Below, piece by piece: positions 10,563-63,098 of a DNA stretch of 64,000 nt. The DNA is taken from NCBI GenBank assembly GCA_033345195.1, contig JAWPOE010000001.1:8192-72191 (forward strand), read 5' to 3'. Within the stretch, counting starts at the first letter, position 1. The number at the start of each line of letters is the position of its first letter. Position numbers and translations under genes: made by a program. The notes beneath the pieces were generated by a model, which was not told the DNA's origin, ran no database searches, and worked only from the letters and a program-made list of their open reading frames with translations. The DNA comes from Alphaproteobacteria bacterium. GTDB lineage: Bacteria; Pseudomonadota; Alphaproteobacteria; Rs-D84.

Positions 10563-10593
10563 ATCTCTATCCCCAAACAAAATATGCAATAAT

Positions 10594-10756
10594 TTTTGTC
10601 ATTCCTGCTTCGGGTCCCGCAAAAATTGAAAAATTTTTGTGGGTGATACCAGGCAGGAACAGGGTCTATAAAATTTACATTCACCGCTATTTTATAATTT
10701 TTATGGTTCGCGTTGCTCACACTACTTAGTCCCACTCCTGCCGTCGCAGGAGTGAC
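10594..10756. repeat. Dispersed palindromic MITE/REP-like element (copy of 44954..45114)
   Basis: The first ~90 nt are nearly identical to 44954-45040. Nested hairpins are gtcattcctgc..gcaggaa and cccgcaaaaatt-gaa-aaatttttgtggg. The 3' part ggttcgcgttgc..actcctgcc.gcaggagtgac is also shared. Confidence 0.8.
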
Positions 10757-10763
10757 AGGAGGC

Positions 10764-11385
10764 TTAATTTTTGCAAACCAAAAAAGCCCAATTGCGACTA
10801 TAATCAATACATTCAAAACTTAGTAGTTGTACATTTTGTTTCTGGATCACCCCAGCGACAACTGCACTGGTCGCTATTGATCCCGCATAAGCCATCCCCC
10901 CTTGCAGAACCACCATCCCTAATCCTGCCCCCGCCTCTACCGCGGCACTCATCGCACCAGCAGCCGCACCGGTGGCAATACCCGCGGCACCAAATGTAAA
11001 TATCGACGCAACCACAATTGCCGCAGCAATAATACCACCAATAATAATCTTTCCTATTACACCGCCAGGTGGCGTTGGCGAACGTGGCAATGCCGAAATT
11101 TGTGCCATGCTGACACATGCCTGACGCGCTGCCTCGCGATAGGCGTCTTTCTTGTTTTCGCCACGAATTTCCGCCTGGCGTGCAGCAATCTTTTAAATCA
11201 GTTGTACATGCATTAACACGCATTGACGCCAATGCCGCCAAAACATAATCCCAAATATTAGACTGTTCTGCACTTTCCCTGGATGACGCGTCAATACCAC
11301 ACACATTCAACGGCACCTTACAAACATTTAACATGGTTTTTTGTGTGGGAAACACATAAAAAATCCAGTCAAAAAAAACACGCAA
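10764..11385 (-). pseudogene. Truncated, frameshifted paralog of the 11499..14330 gene
   Basis: MLNVCKVPLNVCGIDASSRESAEQSNIWDYVLAALASMRVNACT aligns with MLNLCKIPLNACGIDASSKQSAEQSDVWDFVVARLASMRVDACT (aa ~465 of the full-length protein). The sensible continuation (IAARQAEIRGENKKDAYREAARQACVSMAQISALP.. then a Gly/Ala-rich TM tail) is in another frame, behind a TAA near 11190. Confidence 0.5.
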
Positions 11386-33651: not shown

Positions 33652-34380
33652 TCAGTCCACCGTATGATAAACCACCCCATCATAATTTACATTAATCGCA
33701 TTGGTCGCCTGCCCCGCCTCTAAATTCGCATAACAAATATTATCATTATATTTCACACACAGCGACGGCTGAGTACTTTTTTCTGCCCACAGCGGTATCG
33801 ACACCCCCGTTCCCGTCCGAAGGGTCGTTATTCCCGCCGCACACGGTGCAATCAACACACCACCAATCAAACAAAAATCACCTGATGTATCTTCATCACA
33901 ATGCGCAACATCCGCAACATCAACAAACCCCTCACCACAGTCTATTTCATACGGCACCGTATAAAACCCATCGGGACATACATCAACAGCCGCAACAGTT
34001 ACATTGGACAAAGAACGAGTAATAGCCCAAGGCAGATATCTACTACAAGCCTCATATAGATTCGATGTCGGCAGCAAGCTATATCCTGCTATAATTGTCA
34101 TCTGAAAAGGACTTGTCATATAACAATAAAGAAACTGTTCATCCCCATTAGTAATTATCTCAGCGGATGTGCCAGAATAATAATGCTTAAATTCACCATC
34201 ATAGGTCGTTTTATATATAAAACTCCACGAATCTTTGGTATAGTCACCAGGAACAGAATCAATATTGCGACCCAAAAACTCTGGCAATCGGGCGCATTTT
34301 GTAACCTGGTCTGCCGACACACATTTGGCAAAACACGAAAATGGAAACAAAACCAATAAAAATACAAAGACTCTCCGCAT
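33652..34380 (-). CDS. Small secreted Cys-rich protein, fused two-module form (242 aa)
   Basis: Has a signal peptide. The N-terminal module (YCYMTSPFQM) resembles the 58588 protein (TCFMLHPFVM). The C-terminal module CPDGF..CAAGITTLRTGTGVSIPLW..NVNYDGVVYHTVD resembles the 58197 protein. Confidence 0.7.
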   Translation of the reverse strand: MRRVFVFLLVLFPFSCFAKCVSADQVTKCARLPEFLGRNIDSVPGDYTKDSWSFIYKTTYDGEFKHYYSGTSAEIITNGDEQFLYCYMTSPFQMTIIAGYSLLPTSNLYEACSRYLPWAITRSLSNVTVAAVDVCPDGFYTVPYEIDCGEGFVDVADVAHCDEDTSGDFCLIGGVLIAPCAAGITTLRTGTGVSIPLWAEKSTQPSLCVKYNDNICYANLEAGQATNAINVNYDGVVYHTVD

Positions 34381-34604
34381 TTCCCGAATTCCAAAACAAA
34401 AACCATCATTGGGAAATGATGGTCGGGGGTTCGAAAAGTCAAGTGTTTAAGACCCCGTTGCCTTCAATATATAACAACGGCACCCCGACACAATGTGGGG
34501 TAAAAATAACGGCGCAAAAGACACCGAATTTATCGGATTACGATGCAATTGCACCGAAACACATGGGCTTTTCGAAGGCCCGAACTCATATCCCTATGAA
34601 TTCA
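34381..34604 (-). promoter_or_regulatory. Candidate cis-regulatory structured 5' leader RNA, copy A
   Basis: 34421-34615 is about 85% identical by eye to 59035-59232. It runs from the predicted TSS to the RBS and contains conserved helices plus a terminal attenuator hairpin. Confidence 0.6.
34391..34422 (-). terminator. Leader (attenuator) intrinsic terminator, copy A
   Basis: On the minus strand, CCAUCAUU-UCCC-AAUGAUGG followed by UUUUUGUUUUGG, ending 10 nt before the ATG. Confidence 0.6.
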
Positions 34605-34610
34605 AAATGA

Positions 34611-34639
34611 ACTATACACCACCACACAAATAAATTCAA
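34611..34639 (-). promoter_or_regulatory. Candidate sigma70 promoter of leader A
   Basis: On the minus strand, TTGAAT-17 nt-TATAGT. Conservation with copy B begins just downstream. Confidence 0.5.
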
Positions 34640-34667
34640 TCACTTTTATTTATCTAAACAACACATC

Positions 34668-35417
34668 TTAAAAATCAACCCCGAACACAACCCCCATCTC
34701 GGCCGGCGAGCGCTCGAACCCGTGCACCAAATCTTTTTGCACATACCAACCTATATATTTGGTCGCATCCAAATTATAATTCGCCCCAATTTTTAACCGC
34801 AACTGTTCCCCATCATAGTATTCGTCAAAAAGATCAAAATCAAACATCAATTCACCAACCCAGTTCCAGTTATCGTTCACAATATACTGCCCCTGAATTC
34901 CAACTGTCATCGCCCAGGCGTCCGCATTTTTATAATCAACATCATCATTCAGATAATCCACCTCTACCACGCCAGCGACCGTCCAATCATCTGTCACGCG
35001 CCCAAACTGTGTTCCGACAGTCCAATTATATGCAATTGTTTCCAAATGCTGACGCGTATCATAAACCTGCATCGCGCGTCCATAGATATCCGCCTGATAT
35101 TCGCCATCATTTACAACAGACCAATCCAGCCCCACCTGCAAATGATTCCACGACCACTTTCCAAATTCTGGATTATCTGACGAATCATACGAACCAGCCG
35201 TCTGCAACATAACTGTAAAGTTATCCGTTATACCGTACCCAAATTCATCCGCCATAACAAATCGGTCAAATTCAGAATTCGCCTCTAACGGCGTAAACAC
35301 ATTATAAAAACGCCCCTGGGCTGGACTATATAATGGATTACCATTAATTACATTTGCTGCATTTGCCCCAGTTGCCACAAAAATTAAAGCCCCAGGAATA
35401 ATAAAAATACGTTTCAT
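34668..35417 (-). CDS. Outer-membrane beta-barrel protein
   Basis: Signal peptide ending GANA, alternating aromatic beta-strands, and a C-terminal ..VVFGVDF (terminal Phe). Confidence 0.7.
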   Translation of the reverse strand: MKRIFIIPGALIFVATGANAANVINGNPLYSPAQGRFYNVFTPLEANSEFDRFVMADEFGYGITDNFTVMLQTAGSYDSSDNPEFGKWSWNHLQVGLDWSVVNDGEYQADIYGRAMQVYDTRQHLETIAYNWTVGTQFGRVTDDWTVAGVVEVDYLNDDVDYKNADAWAMTVGIQGQYIVNDNWNWVGELMFDFDLFDEYYDGEQLRLKIGANYNLDATKYIGWYVQKDLVHGFERSPAEMGVVFGVDF

Positions 35418-37880: not shown

Positions 37881-37932
37881 AAAATGAATTATTGCAGATA
37901 AAAATCCATTTGCAAATATATCACATAAAAAA

Positions 37933-37974
37933 ATCGGGCATCGTCGTGTAGAAACGCTACATAAATTGCCCGAT
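37933..37974 (-). terminator. Two-tier hairpin element, copy 3; terminator after fabF
   Basis: Outer stem atcgggca/tgcccgat, core gtgtagaaacgctacataa. On the minus strand it is followed by tttttttat. Confidence 0.6.
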
Positions 37975-37994
37975 TTATTTTTAGATGAATTGTT

Positions 37995-39245
37995 TTATTT
38001 AATTTTTTTCAGAACAACCGATGCGTTTGTCCCCCCAAAACCAAACGAATTACTTAATGCAACATTAACATCGCGCTTTTGTGCAACATTTGGTACCAGG
38101 TTGAAATCACCAACCGCATCTTCTGGTTCTTCCAAATTAATTGTTGGTGGAACGATACCATCACGAATTGCACAAATACAGAATATCGCCTCTACCGCGC
38201 CGGCGGCACCCAACAAGTGTCCAGTGACTGATTTTGTTGATGACATACATGCATTGCCGTCTGCAAATAATTCTTTGACCGCCGCCAATTCACCAACGTC
38301 ACCCAAACCAGTTGATGTACCATGCGCATTGATATAATCAACATCTGATGGCGACAGACCTGCATCATTTAACGCAGAAATCATCGCACGTTTTCCACCT
38401 TCACCATTTGGTGCCGGCGCAGTAATGTGATACGCATCACCCGACATACCAAAACCTGCAACCTCTGCATAAATTTTTGCACCACGTGCAACGGCATGTT
38501 CATATTCTTCTAATACCAAGATACCTGCACCTTCGGCCATAATAAATCCATCACGATTTTTATCCCATGGGCGCGATGCGCATTCCGGTTCATCATTACG
38601 CGTACTTAATGCACGCATTGCCGAGAATCCTGCCAAACCAATACGACCAACCGCACCTTCGGCACCACCACAAATCATAATATCTGCATCACCATATTTA
38701 ATCATACGTGCAGCCTCGCCAATCGAATGGGCGCCGGTGGCACATGCCGTCACAGTTGAAATATTTGGTCCTTTTAATCCGTATTTAATTGATACATTAC
38801 CTGCAACCATATTAATAATACCCTTTGGAATAAAGAAAGGGCTAACACGGCGCGGACCACCATCATGCAATTCAATACAATTATCATATATTGTATTTAA
38901 TCCACCAATACCACTGCCAATCGAAACACCAACACGCGTCATATCACCCGCATAATTTTCCAGACCTGCATCTTTCATTGCTTCATCTGTTGCGACCAAG
39001 CCATACAACGTAAATCTGTCCAGTTTACGCTGTTCACGTGGTTCAACAACAGTATCTGGATTATATTGACCAGGTTCTGTACCCTGTTGTGGCAATCCGG
39101 CGATTTGCGACGCCAAATCAGACACATCAAATTCTGTAATTTTACGAACACCAGATTTACCGGCGACAACATTTTTCCATGCATATTCCACACCAGTTCC
39201 CACAGGCGAAACAATACCCATACCGGTAACAACAACTCTTCTCAT
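37995..39245 (-). CDS. fabF: 3-oxoacyl-ACP synthase II
   Basis: 416 aa; MRRVVVTGMGIVSPVG.. and an active-site-like ..TACATG.. motif. Confidence 0.95.
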   Translation of the reverse strand: MRRVVVTGMGIVSPVGTGVEYAWKNVVAGKSGVRKITEFDVSDLASQIAGLPQQGTEPGQYNPDTVVEPREQRKLDRFTLYGLVATDEAMKDAGLENYAGDMTRVGVSIGSGIGGLNTIYDNCIELHDGGPRRVSPFFIPKGIINMVAGNVSIKYGLKGPNISTVTACATGAHSIGEAARMIKYGDADIMICGGAEGAVGRIGLAGFSAMRALSTRNDEPECASRPWDKNRDGFIMAEGAGILVLEEYEHAVARGAKIYAEVAGFGMSGDAYHITAPAPNGEGGKRAMISALNDAGLSPSDVDYINAHGTSTGLGDVGELAAVKELFADGNACMSSTKSVTGHLLGAAGAVEAIFCICAIRDGIVPPTINLEEPEDAVGDFNLVPNVAQKRDVNVALSNSFGFGGTNASVVLKKIK

Positions 39246-44436: not shown

Positions 44437-44700
44437 ACAACTTTTTTGATAAAAAAAGTTGTCACCCCAACGCTTGACCACGGAACCCAGGTCATGCATT
44501 CCTTTCTTTAAACAAAAACCTGAAAGGTTTTGTCATTCCTGCGTAGGCAGGAATAGGGTCTTTTAACCGCGCATAACATGCGCCAAATTAAAACTTAAAA
44601 AATTGTCACCCCAAAGCTTGACCACGGAACCCAGGTGTATATTCCCCTTCGTCTGGCGAAGGGGTGGCATGCGAATGCGTGACGGGGTAGTGGTTTATTT

Positions 44701-44777
44701 GGTTCGCGTTGCTTGCACTGTATGGCCCCACTCCTGCCGCCGCAGGAGTGACTACGCAGTGCCGCAAAGCGACAAGG
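44701..44777. repeat. 77-nt repeat unit, copy 1
   Basis: Essentially identical to 45063-45139; contains the hairpin actcctgcc-gc-cgcaggagt. Confidence 0.9.
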
Positions 44778-44953
44778 TTTTTAAGTTCCCAGGGGTTAAA
44801 AGTTCCCCTCCTGTGGAGGGGTGGTGCATAGCACCGGGGAGGGTTAAAGTCCCTCACCCTTTTTTTTACACACTTGTCATTGCGAGCCAAGCGACCGCGC
44901 AGGCGTGGCAATCCAGTCTGATGTATTCCTTTCTTTAAACAAAACCCAAGAGG

Positions 44954-45139
44954 TTTTGTCATTCCTGCTTCGGGTCCCGCAAAAATTGAAAAATTTTTGT
45001 GGGTGATACCAGGCAGGAATAGGGTCTATAAAATTTACATTTATCGCTACCCTGTATTTTCTGGTTCGCGTTGCTTGCACTGTATGGCCCCACTCCTGCC
45101 GCCGCAGGAGTGACTACGCAGTGCCGCAAAGCGACAAGG
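44954..45139. repeat. Composite repeat (matches 10594..10756 and 44701..44777)
   Basis: Direct comparison of the sequences. Confidence 0.9.
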
Positions 45140-45213
45140 GGATTTTTTAAGTTCCCAGAAAATAATAATTCCCCTCCATTGGAGGGGTGGTGCAAAGCAC
45201 CGGGGGGGGTAAT

Positions 45214-45238
45214 TAAAAATCCCCCAAACGGGGGGGGG
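45214..45238 (-). terminator. Intrinsic terminator closing the fibre-gene array
   Basis: On the minus strand, ccccc(cccc)-gttt-ggggg followed by attttta, immediately after the stop at 45240. Confidence 0.6.
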
Positions 45239-45239
45239 A

Positions 45240-46577
45240 TTATTCAACCCAAATCGTGGCAGTTCCACTCTTATTAGCACCCGATGGAATAACACCTAAC
45301 ACTGAAACCCCCGGAACAGATGCAGTCGCAGGTATCACATCCAAGGTACCATTATTTACAACCATCGTATCACCAACTGAACGCGCACTCACAACACCAT
45401 TGTCATCAGTTGTCACAACCCCATTAGTAACCACGTCTTGAGTCCATCGAACTTTATCTGCAACACCAGCAACCTCTGATTGCAATGACCTAAGCTGAGA
45501 AGTTGTCGGAACATAGTCTCCATCACTGTTGTTATCAACATCATCATGGACATTAAGCATGTCCACATAAGATTCCGTTGATTTCCTAACCCCACCAATG
45601 GCACCATCAGCCGATTCCAAAAGATTCAACTGAATATCAGTACGTCCAGAAGCCTCTAAACCCGGACCGAGCGTCGCCGGCACAACTTTACCATCTACAT
45701 TCACTGCCATAACTTTTTTTATATTATCCGATCCTTGATTTACATTAACCCTGGTATTCAATGCGGCAATCGTCATATCTGCACGCGGCACCATATTTGC
45801 ATAGTCCCCTAAAGCAGGTCCTGTTGGTATATTAGACATATCCCCACCATAAGTATTTACTTTCAATGCACCATCGTCGTCAAAAACCAACGCACCCGCC
45901 GCAGCCGCTGGGGCTACCTTTACATTCAGCTCAGCATTGATACCATCTTCAGCGGGAACAAGCTCTAAACCCTTATTAACATAGTCTTGACGAACCCACG
46001 GCATAGAACTAGTAGTAGTAAGTTCTTGTATCTGTCCAATCGACGCAACCTCTTTATAACGCTGCTGAATACCACCACCATTTGTAAATGCAGTACCTAA
46101 ACTGTCACCCATATGACTTGTATCCGGCAGCATTGATTGCACCTTACCAACAGACGGATATAACTTATCTTTATTTTCATTTGTAATCGTCGTTGTATCA
46201 GTGGTCTTTAACTTGTTTGCAACGTCTTCCTTATCACTCAATGCGTCTTTGGCTTCGTCTGCACTTTTGGCGGCGGCAATTGCATAGGCACCTGCGGCGG
46301 CGGCATGGTTTTCGGCCTGTTGCGCGGCACCACCGGCAACACCAACCATACGGTTCACATATGTCACCCCAGCAATCCCAGAATCCTTGAATTGCGAAAC
46401 AGCAACCGCAATACCATCTGCTGCAGTTATTGGCCCTAAATTACTTGGATAAATATCAGCACTATGCGACGTCGCGACTGTATCATCCTCAGTTCCGGCT
46501 GGCGTGGTCGCCCATGCAGAACCAACCGCAAACATCGCAATTACAGACACCGATAAAAATAACTTTGCCCTTGACAT
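45240..46577 (-). CDS. Secreted fibre protein paralog G (445 aa)
   Basis: Signal peptide ending GSAWA, an Ala-rich coiled-coil segment, and a C-terminal ..GTATIWVE. Confidence 0.7.
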   Translation of the reverse strand: MSRAKLFLSVSVIAMFAVGSAWATTPAGTEDDTVATSHSADIYPSNLGPITAADGIAVAVSQFKDSGIAGVTYVNRMVGVAGGAAQQAENHAAAAGAYAIAAAKSADEAKDALSDKEDVANKLKTTDTTTITNENKDKLYPSVGKVQSMLPDTSHMGDSLGTAFTNGGGIQQRYKEVASIGQIQELTTTSSMPWVRQDYVNKGLELVPAEDGINAELNVKVAPAAAAGALVFDDDGALKVNTYGGDMSNIPTGPALGDYANMVPRADMTIAALNTRVNVNQGSDNIKKVMAVNVDGKVVPATLGPGLEASGRTDIQLNLLESADGAIGGVRKSTESYVDMLNVHDDVDNNSDGDYVPTTSQLRSLQSEVAGVADKVRWTQDVVTNGVVTTDDNGVVSARSVGDTMVVNNGTLDVIPATASVPGVSVLGVIPSGANKSGTATIWVE

Positions 46578-46732
46578 TTGTTCCCCTTCAATATTTTACT
46601 CTCTCTCGCCCCGAACCCTGGCAAGGCATTACCTAAACCACGTCCCCCCCCTGGTTTAGATAATGCATCTCTATTTCCGCTGGGGCGTGGGGCGACATAC
46701 GCCACCCCACCCCAACAATCATACATTGGTGA

Positions 46733-47656
46733 TTATTCTGCGACCTTTTCCCAAGATATTGCACCACCTTTAGAAACCAATGAACATACAGCATTTGCCA
46801 CATTACAGCCAGCCGCTGTATAAGAATTATCTTTCAAAGCATCCCAATTCATTGCATTATCTGCAGTTGTTTTTACAGCACCCAACTGACTAGCAACAGT
46901 GCTATCCTTTGAAAAACCTGAACCAATTGTTTCTGTAATCGCCGTAGCAGCGTTAGTAATTGCCTCCTGTTCTGCTTGTTCTACTGTGTTTATTGGCGCA
47001 TATGTCGTTGGCAGCGCTGCAACTGTTTGTTTTATACTTGTCAAACCGCTATCAAAATCAGAAATCTTGTCATCAATCTGTTTTCCTGTTTCTTCCTTGG
47101 TATATGCATCTGTGATGCCATAGCCAGCCAATGTTGTCGCATCGTCTGCCTTACCTTCCAATGCAGTCACCAAACCATTAATCTTTGCCTGACTGATAGT
47201 GCCATCTTCAATAAAAGCATCTGTGATTTTTGATTCTGCAATCCTTGTAACAACACCACCCGTTGTCGTCACGCCAGTAACCACTTGACCAGCGGCAGCA
47301 GTTTTTGTAGCTGTCAATTCAGCCAACTCAGTATTCGTCACAACATCTGCTGTTTTCGCATAGTCTTTACCGTCTGACAAATCCGAAACTTTGGCAGCTT
47401 CAATCGCGCCACTAATCTGCTCACCTACATTCGTTGTACCAACCTTGTCTGCAACACCTTTAATCACGGCATCCAAACTTTCCGTAGCAGCTTTCAAATT
47501 CTCAGCACCATTAATATAATTCTTTCCGGTATAAGTAATAGCACCATTTGCGTCTGCACCAGTCTGTTTATCAACATAACCTGTTGATGCGATATCTGCG
47601 TTTGCGGCGGACACTGCCATAATTGCTAAAACTGAAACTGTTAATAATTTTTTCAT
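46733..47656 (-). CDS. Secreted coiled-coil fibre protein paralog F (307 aa)
   Basis: Signal peptide ending SAANA followed by DIASTGYVDKQ. Contains the tail-fibre-like TLAGYGITDAYTKEET and the C-terminal C..C..GGAISWEKV. Confidence 0.7.
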   Translation of the reverse strand: MKKLLTVSVLAIMAVSAANADIASTGYVDKQTGADANGAITYTGKNYINGAENLKAATESLDAVIKGVADKVGTTNVGEQISGAIEAAKVSDLSDGKDYAKTADVVTNTELAELTATKTAAAGQVVTGVTTTGGVVTRIAESKITDAFIEDGTISQAKINGLVTALEGKADDATTLAGYGITDAYTKEETGKQIDDKISDFDSGLTSIKQTVAALPTTYAPINTVEQAEQEAITNAATAITETIGSGFSKDSTVASQLGAVKTTADNAMNWDALKDNSYTAAGCNVANAVCSLVSKGGAISWEKVAE

Positions 47657-47733
47657 CTCTCTTTCCTTTCTTTCTTGGTTTTTATTTTACATTGTGGAAT
47701 GGGCCACCCCACCCCACAATACATTATTTGGTA

Positions 47734-48825
47734 TTAATTGCCCGCTGTTGGTTTAATACCTGTTACTGTACGTTCATCCGTCGCCAACTCTTCGCCTGTT
47801 GCGCGTTCGATAACCTCCCATACATAGCCATCTGTACCATATGTCAATGCACAGTATTTATCCATTGCAGAACATTCTGCTGGAACCTTTGAAATCGCCT
47901 TTAATGCCAATTCTGTAATTTGTCTTTCTGTTTCTGTCTTTGCTGCATCAACTGCATCCGATTCCGCTTGATCTGCATAATTTTGCGCCTGTTTCAAGAT
48001 ACCAGTTTGCTCATTATTAATCGCATCAATCGCGGTTTTATTTGACTTTGACAATGTATCAGCCGCTTTTGCAGTGTCCGCAACATCCGACACTTCGGTC
48101 AGAACGTCATTAGTAATCGTATTACCAACATAGTCAACGATGGCCTTACCAGTCACTGGTAAAGTTTCATTAGCACTTGCAATATCACCAAATACAACAC
48201 CCATCGTTCCATCCGCTGCAACACTAACGCTGGTTCCAGACTTTACGACACCAGTCTTGTCCGCTGTTGCAACATCATCAAACTGAACCGCAGAATCTGC
48301 CAAGGCACCCTGGGCCGCCGTTGCATACGCAGCATTAGAACGTTCTATTTCACCTGCAATTGCCGCTGCAATTTGCTTCTTAACAGATCCGTCTGTATTC
48401 GCATCGCCATCCAATCTATTAACAGTATTTTGCAAAGTTGATACAGAACTATCCGTCGCGATACCGGTCAATCCCAATGTGCTGGTTGCTGCATCCCATG
48501 TCAGCACACCACCTGTAACTGTCAGATTATTTTGTTTCTTTGACAATTCTGTTGTCATCGAATCTTTTGTTGCGAATGTCGCATCTGCCGCTTCCAATGC
48601 TGCAACTTTTGCATCATAGTCAGTCTGAGCAACCTTGAGATCAATTTTACCTTCTAATTCTTCTTTTGCGCCTGCCAATGCACTAGCGGCCGCATTTTTT
48701 GCAGCATTTGCTTCGGCAGCAGCCTTGGCATCAACATAACCCTTTGACGCAACAGCGGCATCTGCACTGTTTGCGGATACGATTCCCAACAAAACTGTTA
48801 AGATTCCTGCGGTTAATTTTTTCAT
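47734..48825 (-). CDS. Secreted coiled-coil fibre protein paralog E (363 aa)
   Basis: Signal peptide followed by AVASKGYVD. C-terminal PAECSAMDKYCALTYGTDGYVWEVI. Confidence 0.7.
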   Translation of the reverse strand: MKKLTAGILTVLLGIVSANSADAAVASKGYVDAKAAAEANAAKNAAASALAGAKEELEGKIDLKVAQTDYDAKVAALEAADATFATKDSMTTELSKKQNNLTVTGGVLTWDAATSTLGLTGIATDSSVSTLQNTVNRLDGDANTDGSVKKQIAAAIAGEIERSNAAYATAAQGALADSAVQFDDVATADKTGVVKSGTSVSVAADGTMGVVFGDIASANETLPVTGKAIVDYVGNTITNDVLTEVSDVADTAKAADTLSKSNKTAIDAINNEQTGILKQAQNYADQAESDAVDAAKTETERQITELALKAISKVPAECSAMDKYCALTYGTDGYVWEVIERATGEELATDERTVTGIKPTAGN

Positions 48826-48886
48826 TTTGCTTTCCTTTCTTTCGTTTATTTATTTGTTTTTTGTTATCTTTTTCTTGGCTTGTTTT

Positions 48887-48895
48887 ATTATACCA
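48887..48895 (-). promoter_or_regulatory. Extended -10 element TGGTATAAT upstream of paralog E
   Basis: Read on the minus strand, about 60 nt upstream of the ATG at 48825. Confidence 0.35.
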
Positions 48896-48905
48896 AAAAT
48901 CATGC

Positions 48906-48940
48906 ATTCGGGTAAAGTGAATAATTCACAAAACCCGAAT
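48906..48940 (-). terminator. Hairpin downstream of paralog D
   Basis: Outer stem attcgggt/acccgaat with inner stem gtgaa/ttcac. The T-run is stronger on the plus side. Confidence 0.4.
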
Positions 48941-48951
48941 TTTTTTATTAA

Positions 48952-50004
48952 TTATTGATTTTCTGTAATTGGTGTCCAGCTGTATACAAATCCACCTTCG
49001 GCTTCTGCACTTGGTGTCACAGCCAACACACACATTGTGCCACTTTCATTTGTACATTCGGCTGGGACATTTGCCGTTGCCAATTTACCCAATGCAACCT
49101 GTTGTACTTCTGTGATTTTACCATCAACCATTGTCACACCAGACAATACACTGCCTGCCGCGGCTGTTCCATTGCTGTCCAATGTTGCGATTTGTTGTGT
49201 TGTAAAGTCTTTCGCATTTTGTTCTGCGGTATTAATTGCCGTCTGTTCTGCTTCTTCTACTGTGTTTTTTAGCGCATATTTTGTTGGCAGTTCTGCGATT
49301 GTTGCCTTGGCATCCGTCAAGTCTGTACTCAGACCAGAAATCGAATTAGAAATCTGAGTTTGTGTTTCTTCCTTGGTAAATGCATTTGTGATGCCATAGC
49401 CAGCCAATGTTGTTGCCTTGTCTGCCTTGGTTTCGATATCTTGTGCGTTCTTTGCGATATCTTGTGCGTTCTTTACAATATCTTCTGCGTTCTTTGCAAT
49501 ATTGCTTGTATTTGTTGCAACTGCACCTTCGGCCAATTCTTTTACTTCTGCATCAGTATAATTGTTGGCTTCAGCCAATGCCGCTGCGATATCATATGCA
49601 ACAGAACCTTCCTTAGACGCATCGCCTTCCAAGGTATCCAAACGTGTGACGATTCCTGTAATATTACCGCCAGACGCTTCATCCAACGCTTCAATCTTAC
49701 CTAAATTAGATGCAATATCTTCTGTCTGTTTTTTATCAATCAAGGCTTGCGCTTGTAAATGCGCTTCATACGTTTCTGTTGTAACCCTGGCATCAATTGC
49801 GCTTTGCATTGTTGCGGCATCTTGCTTGGTCTGGTATGTGTTGGCAACGGTGTTAGACAAATCTGTTACGGATTGTGATGTTGCCAATGGCGCAACCTTG
49901 TTATCAACATAGCCTGTTGATGCAACGCTGATTGCAGCATTTGCACTGGTGGCACCCAAAATCGCCGCCATAAAACCAGTAAACATAATATTTTTTACTT
50001 TCAT
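48952..50004 (-). CDS. Secreted coiled-coil fibre protein paralog D (350 aa)
   Basis: Signal peptide MKVKNIMFTGFMAAILGATSANA, identical to paralog C. Contains ASTGYVDNKV, TLAGYGITNAFTKEET and C-terminal PAECTNESGTMCVL..GGFVYSWTPI. Confidence 0.7.
   Translation of the reverse strand: MKVKNIMFTGFMAAILGATSANAAISVASTGYVDNKVAPLATSQSVTDLSNTVANTYQTKQDAATMQSAIDARVTTETYEAHLQAQALIDKKQTEDIASNLGKIEALDEASGGNITGIVTRLDTLEGDASKEGSVAYDIAAALAEANNYTDAEVKELAEGAVATNTSNIAKNAEDIVKNAQDIAKNAQDIETKADKATTLAGYGITNAFTKEETQTQISNSISGLSTDLTDAKATIAELPTKYALKNTVEEAEQTAINTAEQNAKDFTTQQIATLDSNGTAAAGSVLSGVTMVDGKITEVQQVALGKLATANVPAECTNESGTMCVLAVTPSAEAEGGFVYSWTPITENQ
49432..49515 (-). repeat. 21-nt (7-aa) in-frame tandem repeats x4 (NAxDIxK)
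   Basis: The unit gatatcttgtgcgttctttgc repeats, encoding NIAKNAEDIVKNAQDIAKNAQDIETK. Confidence 0.8.
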
Positions 50005-50075
50005 TTTGCTTTCCTTTCTTTTCGTTTTTTATTTTATGTCATGTTCCATGGCGGAAATTTGACATTGGTTAATCT
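49940..50075. repeat. 136-bp near-identical 5' cassette (signal peptide, RBS and upstream region), copy D
   Basis: Matches 51153-51288 with only a few mismatches, while the gene bodies are diverged. Confidence 0.9.
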
Positions 50076-50116
50076 TGCCCCGGGGGCGCTTTTGCCCCCA
50101 CGGACTATTTTTTATA

Positions 50117-51217
50117 TTATTCCAGAACAATTTGAATTTGTGTGTACTCTGGATTACCTTGTTCATCAAATGTGACGATATAGTCGCCCTTGTTATTGCT
50201 CTGCAAAAGTGCATTTGCCTCTATCGTATCAACATCAGATTGTAATGTATCGATTTCACCTTCGGCTGTTTGCAAACGTGTGTTAATGCCGTTAACGGTT
50301 TCTTTTGTTGCGGCGGCATTTGCCACAGTTTCTACAGCAGTCAATGCTTCTGTTGTTGCATATTTTGAATGGTCAATCGCTTCTAAAGTATCCAAACGCC
50401 CATCCAAAGAGGTTTCCAAATCTGTCACAGAAGACTTTGTCGCCAAATTTGCTGTGGCGGCTCCAACCTTGGTATCAATTGTACCACCATCTTCGGTGAT
50501 ATCTGTGATACTTGCTTTGATTGCATTATCAATTACGTCTTGGTCACCAGATGTTCTGTATGCATCTAATGCAGTTTTGTCTGCCTTGTCTGCGACGGTT
50601 GCTGCCAAGTCTGTCACAGACGCCTTTGTTGCCAAATCTTTGGTGGCATTTGTAACTGCTGCGCTAACATCTGCTGCTGTCTGGGCGGCATTTGCCTTGG
50701 CAATTGTATCATTTGTTGCCAATGTTTGATTCAATGTATTAATATCTGTCTGGGCATCTTCACCGGCCTTTAATGCGGCTGCGATTGCGTTTGCGGTTGC
50801 ACCACCCTCTTTTAACGACGTTTCATTCGCTGCGACACGTTCCGTTAATTCTGCCAAATTTTCATTTGTTGCAATACCTGCTGTTTTTTCCTGAACATAG
50901 CCAACGATATCTGTTGCCGTTGCCCCTTGCGGAATTGTACCAACCTTTGTTTCCAACGCATCAACTTCGCCTTGAACGCCAGATACAGCACTGTTTACAT
51001 CTGTTGTTTTTGCATATTCAGACAAATTAACACCGATTCTGCCGTTTGTAATTGTGACATTGTCGCCTGCGTTAGCGTCTTGTGTCAATTTTGCCTGCAA
51101 TTTATTATCTGCATACTGTTTTGAAATCAATTGATGGGCTGCATCAACCGCGTTTGCACTGGTGGCGCCCAAAATTGCCGCCATGAAACCAGTAAACATA
51201 ATATTTTTTACTTTCAT
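50117..51217 (-). CDS. Secreted coiled-coil fibre protein paralog C (366 aa)
   Basis: Same signal peptide as D. C-terminal ..NNKGDYIVTFDEQGNPEYTQIQIVLE. Confidence 0.7.
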   Translation of the reverse strand: MKVKNIMFTGFMAAILGATSANAVDAAHQLISKQYADNKLQAKLTQDANAGDNVTITNGRIGVNLSEYAKTTDVNSAVSGVQGEVDALETKVGTIPQGATATDIVGYVQEKTAGIATNENLAELTERVAANETSLKEGGATANAIAAALKAGEDAQTDINTLNQTLATNDTIAKANAAQTAADVSAAVTNATKDLATKASVTDLAATVADKADKTALDAYRTSGDQDVIDNAIKASITDITEDGGTIDTKVGAATANLATKSSVTDLETSLDGRLDTLEAIDHSKYATTEALTAVETVANAAATKETVNGINTRLQTAEGEIDTLQSDVDTIEANALLQSNNKGDYIVTFDEQGNPEYTQIQIVLE

Positions 51218-51288
51218 TTTGCTTTCCTTTCTTTTCGTTTTTTATTTTATGTCATGTTCCATGGCGGAAATTTGACATTGGTTAATCT
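51153..51288. repeat. 136-bp near-identical 5' cassette, copy C
   Basis: See 49940..50075. It abuts the stop codon of paralog B (51290). Confidence 0.9.
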
Positions 51289-51289
51289 G

Positions 51290-52318
51290 TTATGGTTGTG
51301 ACAAGATTTCAACCGCTTCCCAGCTGACGTTTTCACCCTGAACATTTGCCAACCACATACCATTGCCATCCGGTGCAGGGATATAGCCCGCAGTCTTTAT
51401 TGTGGCAATATCCTGAGTATTTGTTGCGATATTCTGGGTATTAGTTGCGATATTCTGGGCGTTTGCAGAAATTGAACCGCGAACCTCTGTATCATCATAG
51501 TTTTCTAAGTCCGCGACCGTGGTTTCCAGTGTCTGTACACGACCTTCATACTCTTTCGCTGCATAAACATTGGACAATTTACCAATTTCTGTATCGGTAT
51601 AACCCTTTGCCTCTGTCAACGCATCACTGATACGGGTTGCAACGCTACCTTCACCAACCTGGGTTTTCAAGTCATCTACTTCCCCTTCTAATTCTGTAAA
51701 TGTCGCATCTGTTGCAATACCCTTTGTATTCAGAACACCATCTACCAATTCCAAATTCGTACCCAAGGTAAATGCATCTTGTTTCCCTCTCAGAAAACCA
51801 TCTGTTTCGCCTTTGGTGTAAACATCACTTGCATTTGCCTTACTTGCAACTGCTGCGACTGCATTACCTGCTGCTGTCTTTGCTTCATCTGCTGTTGTTT
51901 TTGCGGTATTTGCAGTTTCTGTTGCAGTTTGCGCTGCTGCGGCTGCACCTTCTGCTGTTGCTTTTGCGGTACTTGCAGTGGCTGTTGCAGTTTGTGCTGC
52001 TGCGGCTGCACCTTCTGCTGCTGCTACTGCCTCTGCTGCGTCTGATTTTGCATCTGCTGCGTCTGATGCCGCGCCTGCCAATGCAGTCGATACAGAAACA
52101 TCCACACCATCAATATTGACAGTGGCATTTTCCATATCAGCACTAACAACGTTACCTGTAATATCGATACCAGTACCCGCAGTCAACGTATCTTGTTTAT
52201 TTGCTATGGCCTTGGTTACGTAATCTGGCGATACAATCTGAACCGCCGCATTCGCCGCACCAACGCCCGACAGAATTGCAGCTGCAAATCCTGAAAACGC
52301 TATATTTTTTACTTTCAT
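51290..52318 (-). CDS. Secreted coiled-coil fibre protein paralog B (342 aa) with foldon-like C-terminus
   Basis: The start was set at MKVKNIAFSGFAAAILSGVGAANA. Contains the TAA-stalk-like SANAQNIATNTQNIATNTQDIAT and the C-terminal GYIPAPDGNGMWLANVQGENVSWEAV. Confidence 0.7.
   Translation of the reverse strand: MKVKNIAFSGFAAAILSGVGAANAAVQIVSPDYVTKAIANKQDTLTAGTGIDITGNVVSADMENATVNIDGVDVSVSTALAGAASDAADAKSDAAEAVAAAEGAAAAAQTATATASTAKATAEGAAAAAQTATETANTAKTTADEAKTAAGNAVAAVASKANASDVYTKGETDGFLRGKQDAFTLGTNLELVDGVLNTKGIATDATFTELEGEVDDLKTQVGEGSVATRISDALTEAKGYTDTEIGKLSNVYAAKEYEGRVQTLETTVADLENYDDTEVRGSISANAQNIATNTQNIATNTQDIATIKTAGYIPAPDGNGMWLANVQGENVSWEAVEILSQP
51405..51467 (-). repeat. 21-nt in-frame tandem repeats x3 (NxQNIAT)
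   Basis: tgcgatattctgggtattagt and two variants. Confidence 0.8.
51893..52018 (-). repeat. 63-nt in-frame tandem duplication (AEGAAAAAQTAT.TA.TAK.T x2)
   Basis: Two 63-nt units read directly in the sequence. Confidence 0.85.
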
Positions 52319-52384
52319 TTTTTTCCTTCCTTTTTTTGTTTTGGTGCGGTATAAACGCAACCGTTTTTGTTAAAATTCGTTACC

Positions 52385-53983
52385 TTATTCTGTCACCTGG
52401 GACGGATCATCAACAACCATCACCGTCACCCATTCACCCGTGCCATCGCCATTAGATACCAACATCGCCATTTCACCATCCGTCATGTTGCCCGTATTTA
52501 ATTTCGCCACCGTCACGGATTTATCTGCCAACTTTGCTGTCGTTACAGATCCATCTGGAATCGTATAACTATTCAACGCCGTTTCGACAACGTTAGAAAC
52601 CTGGGTATGTGTCGCATATGTTGCCATATCAGGTGTATCAGACAAATCATCATACGAACCCGTAAATGCAACATCCGCCAAACCTGTTGGGATTTTTAAT
52701 TCAACCTGATCAACACGCGCATTCGTTGCATAATCCGCCACATCCAATGAATTCGCAATCTGGGTCGCAACAGACTCATCACCAACCAAGCCCTGCAACG
52801 CAATAATATCTGTTGCATTTTCATTCGCCATATTACTTGCAGAATCCGCCGTTGTTTTTACCGCCGCAATATCAGACGCATTTTGCGCAACCGACGCAGA
52901 CAAACCAGACAAATCAACACCACCCGTGACCGCCGCAATCTTTTGTTCCAATTCTGCCTTTAATGCCGCCATTTCAGTTTCTGAAACCGTATCCGCAATT
53001 GCATCGTTTAACGCCGCCTCTAAATTTCCCAGCGCCGTCTTTGTCGCATAATCATTTGCCGTCGACTGCAACACAGCCACATCTGCCTGCAAATCAGTTA
53101 TCTGACCTGCGGTCACAATATCAGACGCCAAAACATCCGCCAACTGTGTTTGCAAGTCTTCTAAATCAGACCGCTTCGCATAATCACCAATCGCCTGCTT
53201 GGTTTCAATCAAGGCCTTTAACTCTGCCTTGGCCGCTTCCAAATTCGCCGTTGACACAAAACCCGTTACATCCGGAATATCTGCCGCCGTAATAAAACCA
53301 GTATCATTTTCCAACTCTGACAATTTTGTTGGAATATTTGCAACAACATCATCAATCGCAGACTGCAACGCATCAATTGCAGACTTTGCCGCAAAATCAT
53401 TTGCCAAATCATATTCTGCGGACACACCATCTTGAACAACTGTCAATTTCCCATCCGCATAATCAACCGTTGTATGCACACCTGAAATTGCAGACAAATC
53501 AGCCGCTAACTCTTCAACCTTTAATTCAACACCCTTAAACTGCTCTGGAATCGTCGGACCATTTGGCGTATAGTCCGTAAATTGTTCCAAAACCTCAATC
53601 CTGGTCTGCAAATCACCAGTATCACCAGAACCACTGCCCGGCTTATTATTACCACCAGATTGCGTTATAGATGAACTGCCCAACGCACTTGACCCCGCCA
53701 AATACTTACCAATAGATAAACGAGGCGTTGTCGCAGAACGGGTCGACGAAACACGCGTCCCCGCCGTTTTACCTGTTGAATTCACACGCATCGCACCACC
53801 ACGTACAGCGTTAATCGCACTGCTGCCTGCCGACGATTTTGCAGACGCAGCACTGGACGTGCCATTATACGTCCCAACACCGCCCAACGAGCGCACAGAC
53901 GCCGCACCAAACGCAGGCGCAGCCATAGCCGTACACAACACACAAGCAATGGAAAGCGTTGAAATTTTCAGTTCTTTTTTCAT
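52385..53983 (-). CDS. Secreted fibre protein paralog A (532 aa)
   Basis: Signal peptide ending APAFG. Contains the phage tail-fibre-like motifs LSELENDTGFITAADIP and LADVAFTGSYDDLSDTP, and the C-terminal GEMAMLVSNGDGTGEWVTV. Confidence 0.7.
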   Translation of the reverse strand: MKKELKISTLSIACVLCTAMAAPAFGAASVRSLGGVGTYNGTSSAASAKSSAGSSAINAVRGGAMRVNSTGKTAGTRVSSTRSATTPRLSIGKYLAGSSALGSSSITQSGGNNKPGSGSGDTGDLQTRIEVLEQFTDYTPNGPTIPEQFKGVELKVEELAADLSAISGVHTTVDYADGKLTVVQDGVSAEYDLANDFAAKSAIDALQSAIDDVVANIPTKLSELENDTGFITAADIPDVTGFVSTANLEAAKAELKALIETKQAIGDYAKRSDLEDLQTQLADVLASDIVTAGQITDLQADVAVLQSTANDYATKTALGNLEAALNDAIADTVSETEMAALKAELEQKIAAVTGGVDLSGLSASVAQNASDIAAVKTTADSASNMANENATDIIALQGLVGDESVATQIANSLDVADYATNARVDQVELKIPTGLADVAFTGSYDDLSDTPDMATYATHTQVSNVVETALNSYTIPDGSVTTAKLADKSVTVAKLNTGNMTDGEMAMLVSNGDGTGEWVTVMVVDDPSQVTE

Positions 53984-58173: not shown

Positions 58174-58198
58174 AAATCCCCCGATTGGGGGATTTTTT
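58172..58198. terminator. Bidirectional intrinsic terminator
   Basis: aaaaa-tccccc-gatt-ggggga-tttttt lies between convergent genes. Confidence 0.65.
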
Positions 58199-58595
58199 AT
58201 TGCACAGCATGATATACGACACCATTATATTTGACATTGATTGCGCCAGTGGCACTGCCAGATTCTAAATCCACGTAACATACCATATTATTATATTTAA
58301 TATGAATTGATGGACTGGTAGATTTATCAGAATACAGCGGGAACGACAATCCACCAGATGTGTTTAATTTTGTAATACCTGCACCACACAACGCGCGAAC
58401 CAACCAACATGCACCAGTCGCGCCCACCGAACACACTTCTGATACATCATGCGCAACATAACCCGACGAACACGCACCACCCACCGCAGGCACAAATGTA
58501 TCATATTCAACCGCAACAAAACCAGCCGGACATGATTGCGCAAATGCACAAAACGGGTACAACAAAAATAAAATTAATCTATTTCTACTACGCAT
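58197..58595 (-). CDS. Small secreted Cys-rich protein, C-module form
   Basis: The ATG at 58595 overlaps the upstream TAG by 8 nt (ATGCGTAG). Has a signal peptide. CPAGF..CGAGITKLNTSGGLSFPLY..NVKYNGVVYHAVQ is homologous to the C-terminal half of 33652..34380. Confidence 0.7.
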   Translation of the reverse strand: MRSRNRLILFLLYPFCAFAQSCPAGFVAVEYDTFVPAVGGACSSGYVAHDVSEVCSVGATGACWLVRALCGAGITKLNTSGGLSFPLYSDKSTSPSIHIKYNNMVCYVDLESGSATGAINVKYNGVVYHAVQ

Positions 58596-58998
58596 AAGGA
58601 TTATCACAAACTACTTTTTCGGGACACTTTTCAACCATACACTTTGGAACGATTGCGCCACAAAGGCTAGCATCCGTATACAATCCTGAATCACACCCAA
58701 CCACATATCCATACGGCATAACAAACGGATGTAACATAAAACAAGTATGACGATAACTATAATAACCATACGGATTTGGCAAACTCACTTCATTAAACGC
58801 AATAGAAACACTATTAGACTCAATATCATCCAATGCAATCCCTGACACATCAACCCCACAACAATTTGCACTCCACGCCATTCCCGAATAGCTAAAATTT
58901 GTACATGATGTACATGTACTTAAATCCGGCACACACATTGTGGCGGCATTTGCGCCCCCACACATCAATAGAAATAACAAACAAATACTTCGTCTCAT
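58588..58998 (-). CDS. Small secreted Cys-rich protein, N-module form
   Basis: Strong RBS AAGGGGG and a signal peptide ending GANA. TCFMLHPFVMPYGY is homologous to the N-terminal half of 33652..34380. Confidence 0.7.
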   Translation of the reverse strand: MRRSICLLFLLMCGGANAATMCVPDLSTCTSCTNFSYSGMAWSANCCGVDVSGIALDDIESNSVSIAFNEVSLPNPYGYYSYRHTCFMLHPFVMPYGYVVGCDSGLYTDASLCGAIVPKCMVEKCPEKVVCDNPYA

Positions 58999-59219
58999 TT
59001 TTCCCCCTTACAAAAAAACCGCCACAAGGATTGACGGTCGGGGTGTTAGAAAAGTCAACTATTTAAGACCCCGTTGCTTTCAACATATAACAACGGCACC
59101 CCGACATGATGTGGGGCAAAAATAACGGCGCAAAAACACCGAATTTATCGGATTACGATGCGTTTGCACCGAAATAGTTAGGCTTTTCTAAGGCCCGAAC
59201 CCAAATCCCTCTGGATTCA
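58999..59219 (-). promoter_or_regulatory. Candidate cis-regulatory structured 5' leader RNA, copy B
   Basis: 59035-59232 aligns with 34421-34615. It has the same architecture: promoter, conserved core, terminator, RBS. Confidence 0.6.
59011..59038 (-). terminator. Leader (attenuator) intrinsic terminator, copy B
   Basis: On the minus strand, ACCGUCA-AUCCUUG-UGGCGGU followed by UUUUUUUG, then AAGGGGG and the ATG. The stem sequence is unrelated to copy A but forms the same structure. Confidence 0.6.
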
Positions 59220-59225
59220 GAACGT

Positions 59226-59254
59226 ATTATACATCAAAACAACAAAAAAGACAA
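59226..59254 (-). promoter_or_regulatory. Candidate sigma70 promoter of leader B
   Basis: On the minus strand, TTGTCT-17 nt-TATAAT. Confidence 0.5.
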
Positions 59255-59281
59255 ATACAATAATAAATAAAAATTTAAAGG

Positions 59282-62993: not shown

Positions 62994-63026
62994 AAATAAA
63001 TTAGAATGATTTAGATAAAAACAAAG

Positions 63027-63064
63027 CGGGAATCGTAGTGTACAGACGCTACATGAGATTCCCG
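63027..63064. terminator. Two-tier hairpin element, copy 4; terminator between fba and efp
   Basis: Outer stem cgggaatc/gattcccg, compensatory relative to copy 3. Core gtgtacagacgctacatga. T-runs on both sides. Confidence 0.6.
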
Positions 63065-63098
63065 ATTTGTTTTTAGATGAATTATTATATTTAATTTT

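Follow-up and report, generated by a model that had tools for sequence, protein, structure and literature searches.

A new family of structured, multi-copy 5′ leader RNAs in the alphaproteobacterial lineage Rs-D84, probably acting through conditional transcription termination

The window analysed here is a stretch of 64,000 nucleotides (nt) of DNA from a bacterium of the alphaproteobacterial lineage Rs-D84 (GenBank assembly GCA_033345195.1, contig JAWPOE010000001.1, positions 8,192 to 72,191 of the forward strand). On its minus strand, it carries two copies (A and B) of a structured non-coding element of about 200 nt, each located immediately upstream of a gene for a secreted, cysteine (Cys)-rich protein. 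We conclude that this leader belongs to a structured 5′ leader RNA family that is new, genuine and well supported, specific to Rs-D84/Candidatus Enterousia, where it recurs before a large share of the secreted and surface genes. Its promoter, structure, covarying competing helices, terminator, position relative to the start codon and family distribution are documented computationally below. The reading that we favour, and consider probable, is that of a 5′ leader RNA acting in cis, present in multiple copies and particular to this lineage, which gates the downstream gene by conditional intrinsic termination. Leaders of this kind (terminator-switch attenuators) are already known, the family itself being previously uncatalogued.

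The two minus-strand blocks (34421-34615 and 59035-59232) share 85.9% identity (171 of 199 aligned columns), in line with the value of about 85% given in a preliminary description of this DNA, and both were recovered in the repeat search as families D7 and D10. Identity drops to background on either side of the block: 53.5% over the 200 nt upstream of the two promoters and 55.4% over the initial 300 nt of the coding sequences behind the leaders, for shuffled controls with a mean of 50% and a maximum of 53.8%. The first proteins encoded after A and B are likewise not significantly similar (BLASTP E=0.18), so that the much stronger divergence previously reported for the coding regions also holds. 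Thus, the non-coding block is far better conserved than what follows it. Searches with nhmmer (two-copy profile) and with a filter-free covariance model (CM) each retrieved exactly two copies from the 64 kb, on the minus strand in both cases. A recent duplication as sole explanation is ruled out, as both copies have closer positional orthologues elsewhere (90% between A and locus L002; 95.7% between B and locus L001) than each other (85.6%).

The plus strand also folds well (z=-5.0 for the single sequence), so the fold alone did not discriminate between strands. However, G-U/G-C alternation is frequent in two of the helices described below (P1 and P2), which designates the minus strand as the transcribed one, and the CM scan gave only 20.8 bits to the reverse strand versus 202.6 to the minus strand. 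A transcript from the opposite strand is ruled out by these G-U pairs and CM scores. No Rfam 15 family matched at gathering thresholds anywhere in the 64-kb window (cmscan), which agrees with the earlier statement that the element could be matched to none of the riboswitch consensuses considered. In E-value mode over 34200-34800, sRNA-Xcc1 came out best with 21.3 bits (E=0.41), below its gathering score of 53, and the remaining matches were small nucleolar or long non-coding RNA noise. No tRNA or tmRNA gene was found in the window.

The leader is preceded by its own promoter. As previously described, copy A shows on the minus strand a sigma70-like -35 box TTGAAT (34634-34639) and, after a 17-nt spacer, a -10 box TATAGT (34611-34616), both confirmed by reading the sequence. 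When 81 distinct copies are aligned on the 5′ hairpin of the leader, this promoter stands at a fixed distance in all of them, with a TTGaaa-like -35 box (T in 98% of the copies at one position) and a -10 hexamer of the TAnAaT or TAGACT type conserved in every copy, about 8 nt upstream of the hairpin. Given this distance, the hairpin, named P0 (34582-34603 in copy A; GAAUUCAUA-GGGA-UAUGAGUUC, with a GNRA-type loop in minimum free energy (MFE) folds), should form the extreme 5′ end of the transcript, whose start is predicted about 7 nt past the -10 box and 1-3 nt before P0.

Behind P0, the order along the leader is as follows, all coordinates being those of copy A on the minus strand. G1 (UCGGGG; GGG at 34579-34581) belongs to a block (34557-34581) that also holds the 5′ strand of the long closing helix P1 (CCUUCGAAAAG..CAUGUGUUU), supported by both the CM alignment and RNAalifold, and after it a small C-tract, C1. 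Within the same block, G1 and C1 can form a conserved local alternative hairpin, GGGC/GCCC, to which the GGGCC/GGCCC helix proposed earlier reduces. The P2/P3 domain (34510-34556; CGGUGCAA...UUGCGCCG enclosing GCAUCG...CGGUGU) comes next, succeeded by C2 (34494-34501; ACCCCACA), the 5′ strand of P4 and proposed anti-antiterminator partner of G2, then by the switch strand G2 itself (34481-34489; GUCGGGGUG), which partners either C2 locally or C3 distally, and by the P5 hairpin (34455-34480; CCGUUGUU-AUAUAUUGAA-GGCAACGG). The 3′ strand of P1 (34430-34448; AAACAC..UUGACUUUUCGAA), found in folds and as inverted-repeat pair I1, leads to C3 (34422-34429; CCCCCGAC), whose partners are G1 (base of P1) or G2 (antiterminator). 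The intrinsic terminator (34393-34424; (GA)CCAUCAUU-UCCC-AAUGAUGG then UUUUUGUUUU) has perfect 9-nt arms according to the inverted-repeat search (pair I4); hairpin and U-run without the GA base cover 34393-34422, and the GAC of C3 doubles as the base of the terminator stem. A G-rich Shine-Dalgarno sequence (here GGGA, 34382-34385) and the start codon (ATG, 34378-34380) close the unit; family-wide, the start codon comes 6-40 nt past the terminator. The hairpin and U-run were thus correctly recognized in the preliminary description, except that the ATG lies 12 nt past the U-run, and not 10.

Copy B is built in the same way. The whole unit (59012-59255, minus strand, CM score of 199.9 bits) comprises a -35 box TTTGTC (59250-59255), a -10 box TATAAT located 18 nt from it (59226-59231), P0 (59197-59218), C2 (59111-59117), G2 (59097-59105), C3 (59037-59045) and a terminator (59012-59039). 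The terminator stems of A and B differ through compensatory changes.

Single-sequence folds of copies A and B reach -79 kcal/mol, with z=-5.3 and -4.7, respectively. Across an 83-sequence CM alignment, 91.8% of the cells are paired, versus 83.2% in shuffles and 33-52% in partner-slid controls, both sides have changed at 29 pairs, and 0/500 shuffles reach any of these measures. The element is thereby found with covariation in many Rs-D84 genomes, and not only in the genome where it was noticed. P5, which corresponds to the CCGUUG/CAACGG helix of the preliminary description, displays the strongest covariation of all helices in an all-against-all scan (8/8 pairs changed on both sides, 96% of cells paired). 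P1a (columns 12-19:292-299) is 98% paired, with 4-5 Watson-Crick pair types at four consecutive positions; compensatory changes in P1b rest on a 7-sequence RNAalifold alignment and inspection by eye, the MAFFT alignment misaligning this segment. The same seven sequences give two compensatory pairs in P0 (UA/CG and UA/AU/GU). P2 is 98% paired, and the terminator stem 97% paired family-wide, with five pairs changed on both sides. The CCGA/UCGG helix also listed at first was retrieved in a short subtype, but is not universal. With 27-29 pairs changed on both sides across the analyses made, a covariation-supported structured domain in the 5′ untranslated region (UTR), one of the generic marks of a riboswitch, is hence present.

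Two other modes of control were considered and set aside. The short open reading frames (ORFs) of the leader start inside covarying stems, only 1-2 nt from their Shine-Dalgarno sequence, and the compensatory substitutions alter their codons freely; a leader-peptide attenuator is ruled out, as these ORFs are not conserved. Binding of a CsrA-type protein to G2, suggested by a resemblance of the P0 loop AUAGGGAUAU to the CsrA consensus obtained by in vitro selection (SELEX), was dropped because GGA is not conserved in this strand (GUCGGGGUG, GUCGGGUGU).

RNAalifold applied to 62 sequences selected the long-range helix G2 (GUCGGGGNG) : C3 (CNCCCCGAC) over the local P4, and this helix ranks second to P5 alone in the all-against-all scan. 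It is 96-98% paired in a CM alignment that was not fitted to it, with up to six pair types per position (pair 193:303: GC62, AU6, GU2, CG1, UA1, UG1; pair 194:302: AU39, UA14, GU10, GC3, CG1). The competing C2:G2 helix (P4) covaries as well (pair 157:193: CG63, GC4, GU4, UA4, UG2, AU1). These results confirm the proposal that a GUCGGGG segment pairs either with an upstream CCCC or with a downstream CCCCGAC, both pairings being supported by covariation. Mean duplex energies over the 62 copies are -16.9 kcal/mol for G2:C3, -12.9 for C2:G2 and -9.8 for G1:C3; C2:G2 reaches -11.4 kcal/mol in copy A, and G2:C3 is a perfect 9-bp match in copy B (-18.2 kcal/mol, inverted pair I2). Since the last three bases of C3 (GAC) are the base of the terminator stem, G2:C3 overlaps the terminator. 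The leader thus possesses the mutually exclusive terminator and antiterminator pairings that are another generic mark of riboswitches. Two incompatible helices which are both selected, one of them overlapping a terminator, represent the signature of an anti-antiterminator/antiterminator/terminator system; and because G2:C3 crosses P1, the antiterminated state would be a pseudoknot. With an own promoter and a terminator placed just before the start codon, the attenuator layout described at the outset is supported.

One could alternatively see in this unit a constitutive cassette, in which a strong promoter and a 5′ UTR would stabilize the mRNA, insulate it or enhance its translation, the terminal hairpin and U-rich tract being a structural or ribosome standby site rather than a regulated terminator. 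The hairpin at the very 5′ end of the transcript is compatible with such a role (5′-terminal hairpins, e.g. in the Escherichia coli ompA 5′ UTR, stabilize mRNAs), as are the U-rich tract found directly before strong G-rich Shine-Dalgarno sequences and a cargo that is heterogeneous, often accessory-looking and swapped behind the conserved leader (see below). However, the three-way covariation of exclusive helices, one of which overlaps the terminator, would be left unexplained, and so would the canonical GC-rich stem followed by a U-run. We deem this explanation quite improbable.

A shorter and diverged form of the leader, designated type 2, occurs in the same genomes (among others, L003:3817-3977, L034:201-349, L049:3560-3753, L053:3548-3743, L071:3075-3222, L090:3884-4041, L098:3200-3329 and L101:7320-7473), and also precedes a Cys-rich homologue in L003. 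The sequence of P0 is different in this sister subfamily, and P2/P3 is variable or missing. G2 reads GGUUGGAGG or GGUCAGGAGG and C3 reads CCUCCAACC or CCUCCUGACC, and the triplets are rewritten in concert: GGUUGGAGG / CUCCAAC / CCUCCAACC in one case, GGUCAGGAGG / CUCCUGUCC / CCUCCUGACC in another and GGCAGGAG / CUCCUGC / CUCCUGCC in a third. G2:C3 is again the stronger duplex (-16 to -22 versus -11 to -18 kcal/mol). What the two subfamilies have in common is mainly the switch strands, and not an unpaired pocket.

In addition, G2 looks like a Shine-Dalgarno sequence, a perfect one in type 2 (GGAGG), and C2 and C3 look like an anti-Shine-Dalgarno sequence (CCUCC). From this mimicry, a translational layer of control or an involvement of the ribosome is conceivable.

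The distribution of the family was established through two routes. In the first, contigs encoding homologues of the copy A cargo protein (48 unnamed homologues, in metagenome-assembled genomes (MAGs) and metagenomes) were examined for an upstream element. The leader was retrieved upstream of homologues in the context YceG ... X-rpsL-rpsG-fusA (loci L002 and L004-L010) and in the context TolB-SNase-X (locus L001); the locus of copy A is conserved in L002, L004, L008 and L009. In the second, one genome per GTDB species was scanned with a degenerate pattern drawn from the invariant 5′ part of the leader (AGGGATNTGNGTTCGGG N15-35 CGGTGC), which yielded 95 stretches. As this pattern includes an exact 20-nt match in P0/G1/P2, the copy counts are lower bounds. 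Among the fetched loci, nhmmer identified 89 full-length copies, and the covariance model R1 (190 positions, without P0) identified 83 strong copies and about 15 shorter, diverged ones. The strong copies lie for the most part (76 of 83) in 52 species-level genomes, with up to six per genome of less than 1 Mb, so that the initial picture of a two-copy element gives way to that of a dispersed family.

The hosts are MAGs of the uncultured order Rs-D84/Candidatus Enterousia. Record titles of the scan matches are nearly all Candidatus Enterousia, ‘Alphaproteobacteria bacterium’ or ‘Rickettsiales bacterium’, from guts of human, sheep, goat, deer, buffalo, yak, chicken and termite, and the few matches in other phyla, which neither the profile nor the CM confirms, are due to chance. 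Members of Rs-D84/Candidatus Enterousia are common uncultured gut bacteria of humans and livestock, with genomes smaller than 1 Mb, neither tricarboxylic acid cycle nor respiration, and many unexplained membrane proteins (PMC12306168). A literature search retrieved no RNA motif for Rs-D84/Enterousia, motif catalogues such as PMC8040213 being outside the sequence-level comparison. No copy was found in viral contigs, and a phage origin accordingly receives no support.

Some contigs deserve separate mention. Three contigs of an ‘uncultured Muribaculaceae’ MAG (CAZJGX01; L019, L072 and L090) carry two full-length leaders and one partial leader, and are probably mis-binned Rs-D84 DNA. Clustering is frequent: L066, L065, L083, L084 and L012 each harbour two copies within 8 kb, and L066:2291-2629 contains two tandem leaders about 300 nt apart, without a long ORF between them.

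Dispersal in several copies per genome could suggest a non-autonomous element resembling a miniature inverted-repeat transposable element (MITE), or an integron attC-like site, carrying a promoter. The weak, sub-threshold resemblance to sRNA-Xcc1 (21.3 bits versus 53, E=0.41) would point in the same direction, this family being integron-associated. Yet terminal inverted repeats and flanking direct repeats are lacking at both window copies, and the inverted repeats that do exist are the internal RNA helices. In addition, the orientation and the distance to the start codon are fixed, G-U pairs indicate selection on one RNA strand, positional orthology is maintained across species at the rpsL and TolB-SNase loci, and viral contigs are devoid of matches. 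A MITE or attC identity was rejected on the absence of terminal or flanking repeats at the window copies, and we hold a mobile-element explanation in general to be extremely improbable.

The genes placed behind the leader are diverse. The cargo of copy A (33652-34392 on the minus strand, Shine-Dalgarno and ATG region included) encodes a secreted Cys-rich protein of 242 amino acids (aa) without any Pfam match, and rpsL-rpsG-fusA-tuf lie downstream on the same strand. The cargo of copy B (58197-58998, minus strand) consists of two overlapping ORFs: the first (58588-58998) encodes 136 aa, is Cys-rich and has a signal peptide, and the second (58197-58607), with a signal peptide of its own, is a homologue of protein A over the C-terminal half of the latter, at 45% identity. 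At the TolB-SNase locus of another species (L001:4016-4762), a leader 95.7% identical to that of copy B is followed by a single intact gene of the A type. The split ORFs behind B, compared with this intact gene, imply that cargo has been remodelled or swapped behind a conserved leader.

A same-strand ORF of at least 60 aa with an ATG start begins within about 90 nt of the element end for 78 of the 89 full-length copies. Almost without exception, 6-43 nt separate the leader from this start, the usual distance being 15-20 nt. The remaining 11 copies are mostly followed by a TTG start, a short membrane ORF or the contig end; the leaders of L053, L055 and L073 look orphan, without an obvious ORF behind them. 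A crude hydropathy rule recognized a signal-peptide-like N-terminus in 52 of the 68 distinct first genes, and a lipobox as well in 13 of these. Only about 12 of 70 cargo proteins match any Pfam family: GT2 glycosyltransferase (four), EcoRI-type adenine methylase (two) and, once each, ThyA, C5 DNA methylase, autotransporter, TRL, trypsin-like protease, XRE-type helix-turn-helix (HTH_3) and DUF1661. No coherent pathway or transport function emerged from this Pfam survey of 70 proteins.

The link to a secreted Cys-rich gene family, as first suggested for copy A, does not survive this comparison. Indeed, the same leader precedes about 60 unrelated genes, on which ground a ‘leader of a Cys-rich protein family’ was rejected; a Cys-rich homologue in L011 (P0033) has no detectable leader, and the one in L003 has the diverged leader type only. 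At orthologous loci, the leader is more conserved than its cargo (90.0% versus 70.4% between A and L002; 82.2% versus 63.4% between A and L009), and between B and L001 the leader is 95.7% identical for a first cargo gene that differs (44.5%). Thus, the copies are old, positionally stable and under purifying selection.

That termination occurs and is conditional, in which direction it works and what tips it are inferred, and the scheme that follows should be taken as a model. The sigma70-type promoter of the leader would fire, and the transcript, starting 1-3 nt before P0, would run through a domain of about 190 nt closed by P1. P0, P2/P3, P4 (C2:G2) and P5 would fold during synthesis, C2:G2 forming first, as an anti-antiterminator, and the closing of P1 would bring G1 beside the emerging C3. 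With C3 on G1, P1 would be extended and the GAC left free, whereby the terminator could form and an RNA of about 215 nt would be released (OFF). Should G2 quit C2 and capture C3 in a 9-bp helix, the base of the terminator would be lost and read-through would ensue (ON). OFF would be the default, in view of the order in which the strands emerge and of the nested MFE, which both speak for the terminator, and a signal would tip the RNA towards ON. Candidate signals include a small molecule, an ion, a protein that binds RNA or causes antitermination (for instance a NusG paralogue, or an N-like factor with P0 as its target), an RNA acting in trans, temperature and transcription speed.

Several points weigh against conditional termination so conceived. 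The CM alignment leans towards the fold it was fitted to, and the scan pattern biases the copy numbers, the invariance of P0, G1 and CGGUGC being partly imposed by it. Energetics restricted to nested structures favour the terminator fold by 5-14 kcal/mol over a fold in which G2:C3 is enforced, the pseudoknot being unscored in this comparison; a simple sum (about -17 kcal/mol for G2:C3 versus about -13 for P4 plus about -10 for G1:C3, minus loop penalties) suggests a near-balance. The U-run is interrupted in many copies (GGCGGUC-UAAUUUUUU), which makes the efficiency of termination uncertain. The transcript start, the 3′ end at the U-run and the conditional read-through are all predictions. Finally, the cargo is functionally mixed, no ligand being guessable from it, and a dedicated ligand pocket is doubtful since, in type 2, P2/P3 and the P5 loop vary or are missing.

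In a further possibility, the leader would be a stand-alone, abundant, trans-acting small RNA (sRNA), sponge or regulator, with read-through incidental or secondary, as proposed for Bartonella Brt1. In favour of this view, the element makes up by itself a full transcription unit (about 215 nt), the nested MFE keeps its terminator intact, copies are numerous and near-identical, and at least three of them (L053, L055 and L073) have no obvious ORF behind. Moreover, Brt RNAs combine high expression with little read-through (PMC5387305). However, the interval from the U-run to the Shine-Dalgarno sequence is too short to accommodate another promoter, which leaves the cargo genes dependent on read-through; almost every copy has a start codon in the same orientation 6-43 nt away; and a selected antiterminator helix overlapping the terminator makes no sense for a pure sRNA. 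We consequently grant little likelihood to this possibility.

The preliminary description left the choice between a riboswitch and an attenuator, and it is the latter reading that finds support. A classical small-molecule or ion riboswitch, which would be a special case of conditional termination, would use the junction enclosed by P1 as an aptamer for a global signal (second messenger, alarmone or metal ion), binding shifting the balance between P4 and G2:C3. This idea draws on the multi-helix junction closed by P1 adjoining a terminator/antiterminator platform, on the presence of several copies per genome before envelope genes, a situation reminiscent of c-di-GMP (cyclic di-GMP) riboswitches, which occur in many copies per genome before diverse envelope, secreted and uncharacterized genes, and on the fact that no known class matches the leader. 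However, the cargo shares no common pathway, and P2/P3 and the P5 loop are dispensable in type 2, where mainly the switch strands, and no unpaired pocket, are conserved. The mixed cargo and the dispensability of these parts argue against a riboswitch dedicated to a metabolite pathway, and the mixed cargo makes a global, lineage-specific attenuator the likelier of the two. A classical riboswitch is possible, if unlikely. With similar reserve, we suggest only tentatively that the leader might be a new riboswitch class, or a new class of RNA that senses a protein or another RNA, responding to one global cue (be it a second messenger, an ion, or a molecule supplied by a host or partner) and thereby turning on a large part of the secreted and surface proteins of these reduced-genome bacteria.

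Among described systems, the Brt family of Bartonella appears closest, judging from its published description (PMC5387305). Brt1-9 are nine genus-specific copies of 194-203 nt with a terminator-like 3′ stem, for which Tu et al. (2016) proposed a riboswitch-like control of read-through (PMC5387305). Both families are restricted to one lineage of Alphaproteobacteria and multi-copy, with a length of about 200 nt, high mutual identity and a stable predicted structure. In both, the unit starts from its own promoter, finishes with a terminator-like 3′ stem-loop and is followed directly by a co-oriented gene. However, Brt RNAs always precede an XRE-type HTH regulator (Trp), whereas HTH_3 was found in one of 70 cargo genes of the leader; Brt loci are clustered and restricted to Bartonella, whereas leader loci are dispersed and belong to Rs-D84/Candidatus Enterousia. 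Furthermore, Brt structures are single-sequence folds, whereas the alternative helices of the leader are backed by covariation.

Riboswitch platforms, T-box elements and PyrR- or TRAP-type attenuators share with the leader the successive pairings 1:2, 2:3 and 3:4, the last one being a terminator before the ORF. None of their Rfam models matches the leader, however, and its antiterminator crosses the closing helix as a pseudoknot, instead of being a simple nested alternative. The T-box has its own Rfam family; the leader yielded no Rfam match and no T-box sequence or specifier, and neither aminoacyl-tRNA synthetase nor amino-acid biosynthesis families were present among the Pfam matches of the 70 cargo proteins. 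Riboswitches for c-di-GMP (classes I and II) and other second messengers show no sequence or structure match to the leader, in which a conserved pocket is not identifiable. Phage HK022 put, Bacillus EAR and LoaP/RfaH leaders are promoter-proximal structured RNAs before surface-structure genes whose terminators are read through. In these systems, RNA polymerase becomes resistant to downstream terminators, whereas the pairing of the leader would act on its own terminator, and no family match links them to it. Lastly, the ompA-type 5′ UTR likewise opens with a hairpin, in the mRNA of an envelope protein, but stabilizers of this type are much shorter than the leader, lack a terminator and do not form multi-copy families.

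Other features of the window were recorded along the way. A second conserved non-coding pair (37898-38008 and 62990-63100, 81% identical) lies at gene ends, once between convergent genes, and folds into a Y-shaped hairpin (AAAUCGGGCA..GUGUAG-AAAC-GCUACA..UGCCCGAUUU) with a T-run behind it; the pair scores only 11.8 bits with model R1 and looks like a conserved, possibly bidirectional, terminator module. GC-rich palindromic repeats resembling repetitive extragenic palindromic (REP) sequences (e.g. GTCATTCCTGCGTAGGCAGGAAT, CCCACTCCTGCCGCCGCAGGAGTGAC and CCCCTCCTGTGGAGGGG), of several families with 2-3 copies each (D4, D8, D13, D15 and D19), occupy non-coding DNA at 44450-45240 and 10574-10781. 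A tandem array on the minus strand (45240-53983) encodes seven paralogous secreted Ala/Thr-rich proteins with the look of coiled-coil surface proteins, three of which start with MKVKNI..., and contains 21-nt internal repeats at 51849-52016; the CM scan found no leader before any of the seven. A perfect-register tandem duplication of a 57-nt unit (10198-10311, 93% identical, AAG/GAA-codon-rich, D17) is probably a Lys/Glu-rich repeat inside a gene.

For RNA biology, the leader adds a new family of more than 80 sequences, with rich covariation and a three-strand switch whose antiterminator would be pseudoknotted. Within Rs-D84 MAGs, it could serve as an annotation marker of transcription starts and of the surface-protein regulon. 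The reuse of one leader before many surface and secreted genes would provide a minimal genome with a simple RNA-based co-regulation of the cell surface. If a single cue were indeed sensed, the leader would define an RNA-based master regulon in organisms that have lost most other regulators.

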